Virus record (IMG/VR): IMGVR_UViG_2872698443_000007
Source of the DNA: a virus
Lineage: Duplodnaviria > Heunggongvirae > Uroviricota > Caudoviricetes
Reading direction: 5' to 3' (one strand)
DNA: 37,278 nucleotides
In this document: piece by piece, positions 3,687 to 3,921 of the stretch
How the letters are laid out: each line of letters opens with the position of its first letter
How positions within the stretch are numbered: position 1 is the first letter of the stretch
Translations under genes and position numbers: made by a program
The notes under the pieces: model-generated
What the model was told of the DNA's origin: nothing
Database searches by the model: none
Seen by the model: only the letters and a program-made list of their open reading frames with translations

Positions 3687-3798
3687 AACTGAAGTTGCCC
3701 TGAAAATGAAATTTTTTTGCACAACCGCAGAACTTTTCCGCAGGGCATCAGTCTTAATTAGTGCCACTGCTTTTCTTTGATGTCCCCATTTTGTGGAG

Positions 3799-3841
3799 CC
3801 CATCAACCCCGCCATTTCGGTTCAAGGTTGATGGGTTTTTT
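3799..3841 (+). terminator. rho-independent terminator
   Basis: Perfect 10-bp stem CCCATCAACC ... GGTTGATGGG followed by TTTTTT at 3836-3841. Confidence 0.6.
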
Positions 3842-3921
3842 GTTGCCTGAAATTTAAGCTGTTTAAAATCATGATGTTAGAAGCACTGTTTTTTAACGAT
3901 GGCGACAAAATGGCGGCAGCG

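Follow-up and report, generated by a model that had tools for sequence, protein, structure and literature searches.

The small RNA gene rybB has been reported as an integration site of P2-like prophages on several occasions. For Escherichia coli strains W, B (REL606/BL21) and Crooks, P2-like prophages designated Rybb*W, Rybb*B and Rybb*Cr were listed with the "rybB ncRNA" as their insertion site, the element of strain B carrying the retron Ec86 (Archer et al., 2011; PMC3032704). The same gene was identified as a site of P2-like prophages in Klebsiella pneumoniae, together with the island Kpn38RybB (Hudson et al., 2014; PMC4048246), and in a survey of E. coli defence hotspots, hotspot #29 (109 genomes) contained only Felsduovirus-type phages in rybB (Hochhauser et al., 2023; PMC10121019). 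The main text of Bobay et al. (2013), a paper cited for rybB by Hochhauser et al. (2023), does not name the gene, and a literature search joining rybB, integrase and attB found no paper.

The best-described attachment sites of this phage family are those of coliphages P2 and 186. In P2, attP is ordered as ogr, P arm, IHF site, core, Cox region and a P' arm inside the 3' end of int, around an annotated core of 27 bp. Coliphage 186 targets the 3' end of the tRNA gene ileY, a structured RNA gene that is rebuilt upon integration; its annotated core comprises 36 bp of ileY, and the 186 record gives the Int arm-type consensus as YAYCGCCAYTY, the complement of RARTGGCGRTR, in tandem on both sides of attP. 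Closer relatives of the prophage described below are 4LV2017 (Elveevirus), KP12, the Kp48xx prophages and Escherichia phage vB_EcoM-813R9, whose integrases are 96–99% identical to its own. Klebsiella phages of this type also integrate at rybB, and the GenBank record of 4LV2017 annotates attL and attR at ATGGGTTTTTTGTTGCCTG, with Klebsiella rybB abutting attR.

The locus analysed here is part of a 37,278-nucleotide stretch of DNA (the window) from a viral record of IMG/VR, which begins in host sequence and ends inside a prophage with the gene order of P2. Between the host gene ybjL and ogr, the first phage gene, lies a gap of 235 bp (3687–3921). The first-pass annotation, which was made from the sequence alone, had recognised this gap as the prophage-host junction on the ogr side (attR by P2 convention), with the attachment core inside it; this assignment holds, as do both borders, the 3' end of ybjL forming the left edge of the gap and the ogr stop codon (3922–3924, minus strand) the right edge. 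We consider it highly probable (about 0.93) that 3687–3921 is the attR site (P-O-B') of a complete P2/186-like prophage of 33.9 kb in the 3' end of rybB. The coordinates of all features that enter into this interpretation are collected in Table 1.

The earlier reading missed a complete rybB gene within the gap. The only Rfam match in the entire window is RybB (RF00110) at 3766–3844 on the plus strand; its score of 105.3 bits (E = 7e-21) exceeds the gathering threshold of 40, and it covers the full model (1–79 of 79). The annotation of K-12 MG1655 has rybB flanked by rcdA and ybjL, on the strand of ybjL, and the annotated gene maps to 3763–3841 of the window. Window positions 3400–3844 reproduce the K-12 sequence without a single difference, and all four mismatches to K-12 fall after 3844. 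Upstream of the RNA, the elements GAACTT and TCTTA, separated by 16 bp, read as a predicted sigma-E type promoter, with TCTTA 7 nt before the RNA start; the sigma-E dependence of rybB is well established and fits this promoter-like sequence. Another hallmark of RybB is that it represses omp mRNAs in an Hfq-dependent manner.

The RybB match and the identity to K-12 also show what the "strong hairpin terminator" noticed at first pass is: the hairpin is real, as seen both from folding and from its inverted repeat, but it is the terminator of rybB, and neither an anonymous structure nor a phage terminator. Its stem CCCATCAACC/GGTTGATGGG (3799–3808/3826–3835) is followed by TTTTTTGTT, and the U-tract after the full 12-pair stem reads UUUUUUGUU. 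The 82-nt rybB RNA folds at -25.2 kcal/mol (z = -3.3), and none of 200 shuffled sequences was equally stable. A simple terminator scan of 3500–4300 gave no hit; the scan admits loops of at most 8 nt and therefore missed the rybB hairpin with its loop of 17 nt, which folding shows. Likewise, the insertion site had been placed next to ybjL; the prophage region does adjoin ybjL, yet the actual target is the 3' end of rybB.

Table 1. Features of the ybjL-ogr junction and of the adjoining genes, in window coordinates.
Feature	Position	Strand	Basis
ybjL, host gene, aspartate:alanine antiporter family	2001..3686	+	ORF list; PGAP annotation of identical public genomes
rybB promoter region, sigma-E-like (predicted): GAACTT 3730–3735, 16-bp spacer, TCTTA 3752–3756	3730..3756	+	Read from sequence; identical to K-12
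rybB sRNA gene, complete, identical to K-12	3763..3844	+	Rfam RF00110; K-12 annotation
rybB Rho-independent terminator, 12-pair stem with internal loop, then U-tract	3797..3841	+	Fold; inverted repeat
Attachment core (O) ATGGGTTTTTTGTT, 14 bp	3831..3844		Repeat search of the occupied locus; breakpoints against the empty site
Phage arm, ogr side (P arm by P2 convention)	3845..3921		Alignment with KP12; end of the 4LV2017 record
IHF-like site AATCATGATGTTA (12/13 to WATCAANNNNTTR), between core and arm-type sites	3867..3879	+	Pattern scan; P2 has an IHF site here
Two tandem Int arm-type repeats (putative) TGGCGACA-AAA-TGGCGGCA, 11-bp period, abutting the ogr stop	3900..3918	+	Pattern search
ogr, late-gene activator, first phage gene	3922..4140	-	Pfam Ogr_Delta, 78 bits; PGAP
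int, tyrosine integrase of the rybB-specific lineage, last gene of the window	36247..37278	+	Pfam Int_N and Phage_integrase; PGAP

Since int stops on the final base of the window, the int-side junction lies outside it, as the first-pass annotation had noted; the attachment core is nevertheless resolvable because there are two complete public genomes that match the window and run past its end. NZ_CP058709 (strain S163-2) is identical to the window from position 1169 to the window end, and NZ_CP116152 (strain DETEC-P61) is identical over the whole window, including an IS903B element in grxA, save for an inverted tail-fibre segment of 1829 bp. The flank beyond int was taken from these two genomes, which agree in reading an 89-codon ORF, AAGTGGCGACAAAGTGGCGGCA, a hairpin AACCCATTTA-CA-TAAATGGGTT with a T-tract, and rcdA. 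At the opposite end of the window, the sequence left of ybjL, where phage genes would have spoken against a junction in the gap, consists of ybjM, grxA and IS903B and contains no phage sequence. The IS903B element (1057 bp, 112–1168) splits grxA and is bordered by a 9-bp target duplication, TATGTAGAT, at 103–111 and 1169–1177; DETEC-P61 is the only complete E. coli genome that matches this insertion at 100%.

Alignment of the gap with the sequence beyond int, the comparison suggested at first pass, recovered a matching core of 14 bp. In the 38.5-kb occupied locus (L006), ATGGGTTTTTTGTT occurs exactly twice, once in the gap and once at L006 37727–37740, that is, 449–462 bp beyond the last base of the window, in the interval from int to rcdA. 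The empty site of K-12 contains a single copy of this core, and so does the contiguous record of the Klebsiella phage KP12, where it lies between int and ogr. The core consists of the final 5 nt of the terminator stem of rybB (its 3' half), the U-tract and GTT; in terms of the annotated gene, it is the last 11 nt of rybB plus GTT. Four sequences were aligned with MAFFT: the empty K-12 site (GGTTGATGGGTTTTTTGTTATCTAAAACTTATC), the junction in the window (GGTTGATGGGTTTTTTGTTGCCTGAAATTTAAGC), the int-side junction (ACATAAATGGGTTTTTTGTTATCTAAAACTTATC) and the contiguous int-attP-ogr stretch of KP12 (ACATAAATGGGTTTTTTGTTGTCTGAAATTTAT). The homology breakpoints among them fall exactly at the core, and, judged from these alignments, strand exchange must have occurred inside the 14 bp. 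The core copies at 3831 and L006 37727 define a prophage of 33,896 bp. As everything to the left of the core is provided by the host and the core itself is identical, rybB is rebuilt exactly.

A core of 14 bp is short for the P2 family in comparison with the annotated cores of P2 and 186 and with the roughly 19 bp seen for the same type of phage in Klebsiella. Immediately beyond it, the phage arm at 3845–3856 and the E. coli host flank (L001 3965–3976) match at 8 of 12 positions (GCCTGAAATTTA vs. ATCTAAAACTTA), and it is because of this partial match that BLAST hits on empty sites stop at 3844 in some cases and at 3856 in others. Inspection by eye of the sequence around the 14-mer for inverted core-type Int sites gave none that was convincing.

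The first-pass annotation had allowed for a prophage remnant without a matching attachment repeat, and a decayed element lacking a functional att pair has a precedent in this lineage: its sister in E. coli B has truncated replication and cII genes and is defective. Here, exact 14-bp repeats are present at both prophage ends, the junctions and arm-type sites are intact, PGAP annotates a full and intact P2-type set of structural, lysis, replication and lysogeny genes, and the tail-fibre segment has switched between near-identical genomes; decay is accordingly very improbable for this element. In contrast to the B-strain element, whose ORF between int and attP is also a different one, the prophage appears complete on the basis of its gene content and termini.

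A different concern is the true extent of the homology between phage and host. As phage 186 carries 36 bp of ileY, the present phage could carry a more extended but diverged version of the 3' end of rybB, so that functional homology would extend well over 14 bp. The MAFFT alignment indeed set the phage hairpin AACCCATTTAC opposite the rybB sequence AGCCCATCAAC, and in Klebsiella the identity of attP and attB extends on the ogr side by approximately 5 bp more, to about 19 bp (ATGGGTTTTTTGTTGCCTG), compared to 14 bp in E. coli. Yet a local alignment of the 120-bp int-side arm with the 144 bp upstream of the core yielded a score of 15, which was reached by 1489 of 2000 dinucleotide shuffles, and the score of the alignment of the hairpin alone to rybB was reached by 737 of 2000, which is chance level. 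With both alignments at the level of shuffled sequence, a diverged rybB copy in the int-side arm was rejected, and a longer functional homology is scarcely credible; the 14-bp core is retained as the extent of shared sequence in E. coli.

The choice of rybB distinguishes this prophage from both model phages, as the first-pass annotation had supposed. Its integrase aligns end to end with those of 186 and P2, at 55% and 35% amino acid identity, respectively. In the phage collection, only 19 records have an Int that is at least 80% identical, namely vB_EcoM-813R9, KP12, 4LV2017, the Kp48xx prophages and ESSI2_ev040, and every other record falls below 60%. On account of these identities, the specificity can be regarded as distinct from those of P2 and 186; the core is also unlike those annotated in P2 and 186, and the host target is rybB, not ileY, with the host sites of P2 differing as well. 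From the same observations (the low identity to the P2 and 186 integrases, the small number of close records, and a site unlike either the ileY site of 186 or the P2 attP core) one might conclude that the integration specificity of the phage had so far gone unrecognised. That conclusion is hardly tenable in view of the published record: three papers (PMC3032704, PMC4048246 and PMC10121019) already describe P2-like prophages at rybB, which is therefore a known site, the BL21 element has the same int, cI and apl-like gene beside rcdA, and the 4LV2017 record already annotates the att sites. The suggestion of a distinct integration specificity thus stands as far as P2 and 186 are concerned, and is refuted with regard to novelty.

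The relationship to the BL21 element is close: its int is 96% identical in DNA sequence, its apl-like protein has the same accession, its cI is near-identical, and it also abuts rcdA. The two elements differ in cargo, with an AIPR/AbiU-like protein and a DUF6236 protein here vs. the retron Ec86 in the B strain (Archer et al., 2011; PMC3032704). The cargo slot of the present prophage (26030–29040) lies between the portal and replication genes; it encodes, both on the minus strand, the AIPR-family, AbiU-like protein (26030–27796; Pfam 110.7 bits, PADLOC AbiU 83 bits) and the DUF6236 protein (28168–29040).

The rybB site is frequently occupied. In a collection of 5426 complete E. coli genomes, the uninterrupted rcdA-rybB-ybjL arrangement was found in 4295, and the ybjL-rybB-ogr-D junction (at least 80% of a 901-bp probe) in 1115; the rybB-specific int lineage is present in 1134. 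Compared as totals, the approximately 1131 non-empty sites and the 1134 int carriers agree, and about one fifth (~21%) of complete E. coli genomes have an occupied rybB site. The junction is real, and it is an ordinary representative of a hotspot that is already known.

Beyond the core, the layout of the attachment region follows the P2/186 plan. The arm on the ogr side is nearly identical in the Klebsiella phages KP12 and 4LV2017, and phages of this type share the attP hairpin, the core, the arm-type repeats and the ogr-side arm with the E. coli prophage. In KP12, a relative with 97% identical int DNA, the order int, hairpin, core, arm and ogr is contiguous. The pattern TGGCGRCA-N3-TGGCGRCA occurs in the 38.5 kb only at 3900–3918 and at L006 37613–37631 (0.01 expected). 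The arm-type consensus RARTGGCGR, arranged in tandem at 11 bp in both arms, is shared with 186, and the int-side repeat block aligns to the annotated 186 Int arm sites with a score above those of all 1000 shuffles; by this similarity, the tandem repeats are homologous to the 186 arm sites and represent putative Int-binding sites. The IHF-like site between the core and the ogr-side repeats has two possible counterparts on the int side, where further matches with one mismatch to the IHF consensus lie between arm sites and core (L006 37675–37687 and 37694–37706). As one-mismatch matches to this consensus occur at chance frequency (39 found vs. 32 expected), these candidate sites are backed by their position only, in analogy to P2 and 186.

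The phage brings its own hairpin to the attachment region. Located downstream of the int operon, it has the core as its 3' half plus T-tract (-9.4 kcal/mol, z = -2.7). The lysogeny module is cI/apl/cII/fil, as in 186. The 12-mer TTTTTGTTGCCT (window 3833–3848), which follows the phage hairpin and core, is shared with the tail of the annotated 186 lysogenic-operon terminator (L010 930–945), with 23 of 2000 shuffles reaching the alignment score. In 186, core and lysogenic-operon terminator are separate, whereas here the tail of the terminator-like hairpin coincides with the core; the recombination core of this lineage would thus seem to be the terminator tail itself. The shared 12-mer hints that the core of the rybB-specific lineage may derive from a lysogenic-operon terminator like that of 186.

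The stretch between int and attP is variable. The 89-codon ORF found here (orf89; L006 37279–37612) is replaced in BL21 by an unrelated ORF of 110 codons (L012 3518–3958), and KP12, vB_EcoM-813R9 and 4LV2017 have no ORF in this position; the int genes of these three phages have 7 additional codons and overlap with the arm-type repeats. No similarity was detected between orf89 and Orf69 of 186 (E = 0.88), and Pfam and PADLOC gave no match either to orf89 or to its positional counterpart in BL21.

The rybB gene itself contains a sequence that resembles the phage arm sites. The loop of its terminator contains CCGCCATTT (3809–3817), which on the opposite strand reads exactly as the arm-type motif AAATGGCGG, and Klebsiella rybB has CCGCCACTT, complementary to the second arm variant, AAGTGGCGG. 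The probability of a single match of this kind in 80 nt is roughly estimated at 0.01; this is a post hoc observation. The host site might in principle carry an arm-type Int contact approximately 14 bp from the core and thus be more than a simple attB, an idea we regard as speculative and very improbable. If it were true, such a contact could help to explain why 14 bp of identity are sufficient, as well as the attachment of this Int lineage to rybB in more than one genus.

A second recombination system of the prophage appears to act on its tail-fibre genes. An invertible segment (11859–13687) is flanked by 15-bp inverted repeats, TTGGTTTGGGAGAAG, in the region 11195–13702, and is adjoined by a serine recombinase gene on the minus strand (11195–11776). 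The orientation in the window is that of S163-2; in the otherwise identical DETEC-P61 the segment is in the opposite orientation, and on this evidence the tail-fibre switch appears to be active.

Taken together, the att sequences are best explained by site-specific recombination in which the tyrosine recombinase joined the phage to the 3' end of rybB. The phage core ATGGGTTTTTTGTT is identical to the sequence that makes up the U-tract of the rybB terminator and the 3' half of its stem, and an exchange within this 14-bp identity sets the phage between rybB and rcdA while rebuilding rybB, so that the sRNA is unchanged in lysogens; the hairpin of the phage comes to lie at the int-side junction, beside rcdA. 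Two tandem arm-type repeats per arm, with IHF-like candidate sites toward the core, give the P2/186 attP layout, in which we infer binding of Int to the repeats, roles of IHF and excisionase, and an exact overlap region somewhere within the 14 bp. The sequence beyond 37278 is expected to run from orf89 to AAGTGGCGACAAAGTGGCGGCA and AACCCATTTACATAAATGGGTTTTTTGTT, directly followed by ATCTAAAACTTATC and rcdA, and the attP junction of the excised phage would read CATAAATGGGTTTTTTGTTGCCTGAAATTT.

These results leave the understanding of P2-family integration unchanged; they add the base-level definition of the core in E. coli and the layout of the arm sites. Since about one fifth of E. coli genomes have an occupied rybB site and the defence cargo of the resident elements is variable, precise boundaries (3831–3844 and the copy 449 bp past int) help to delimit these prophages and their cargo. 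The main value lies in the correct annotation of the locus: the gap between ybjL and ogr holds a conserved envelope-stress sRNA gene, the last 14 bases of which are the attachment site of the phage.
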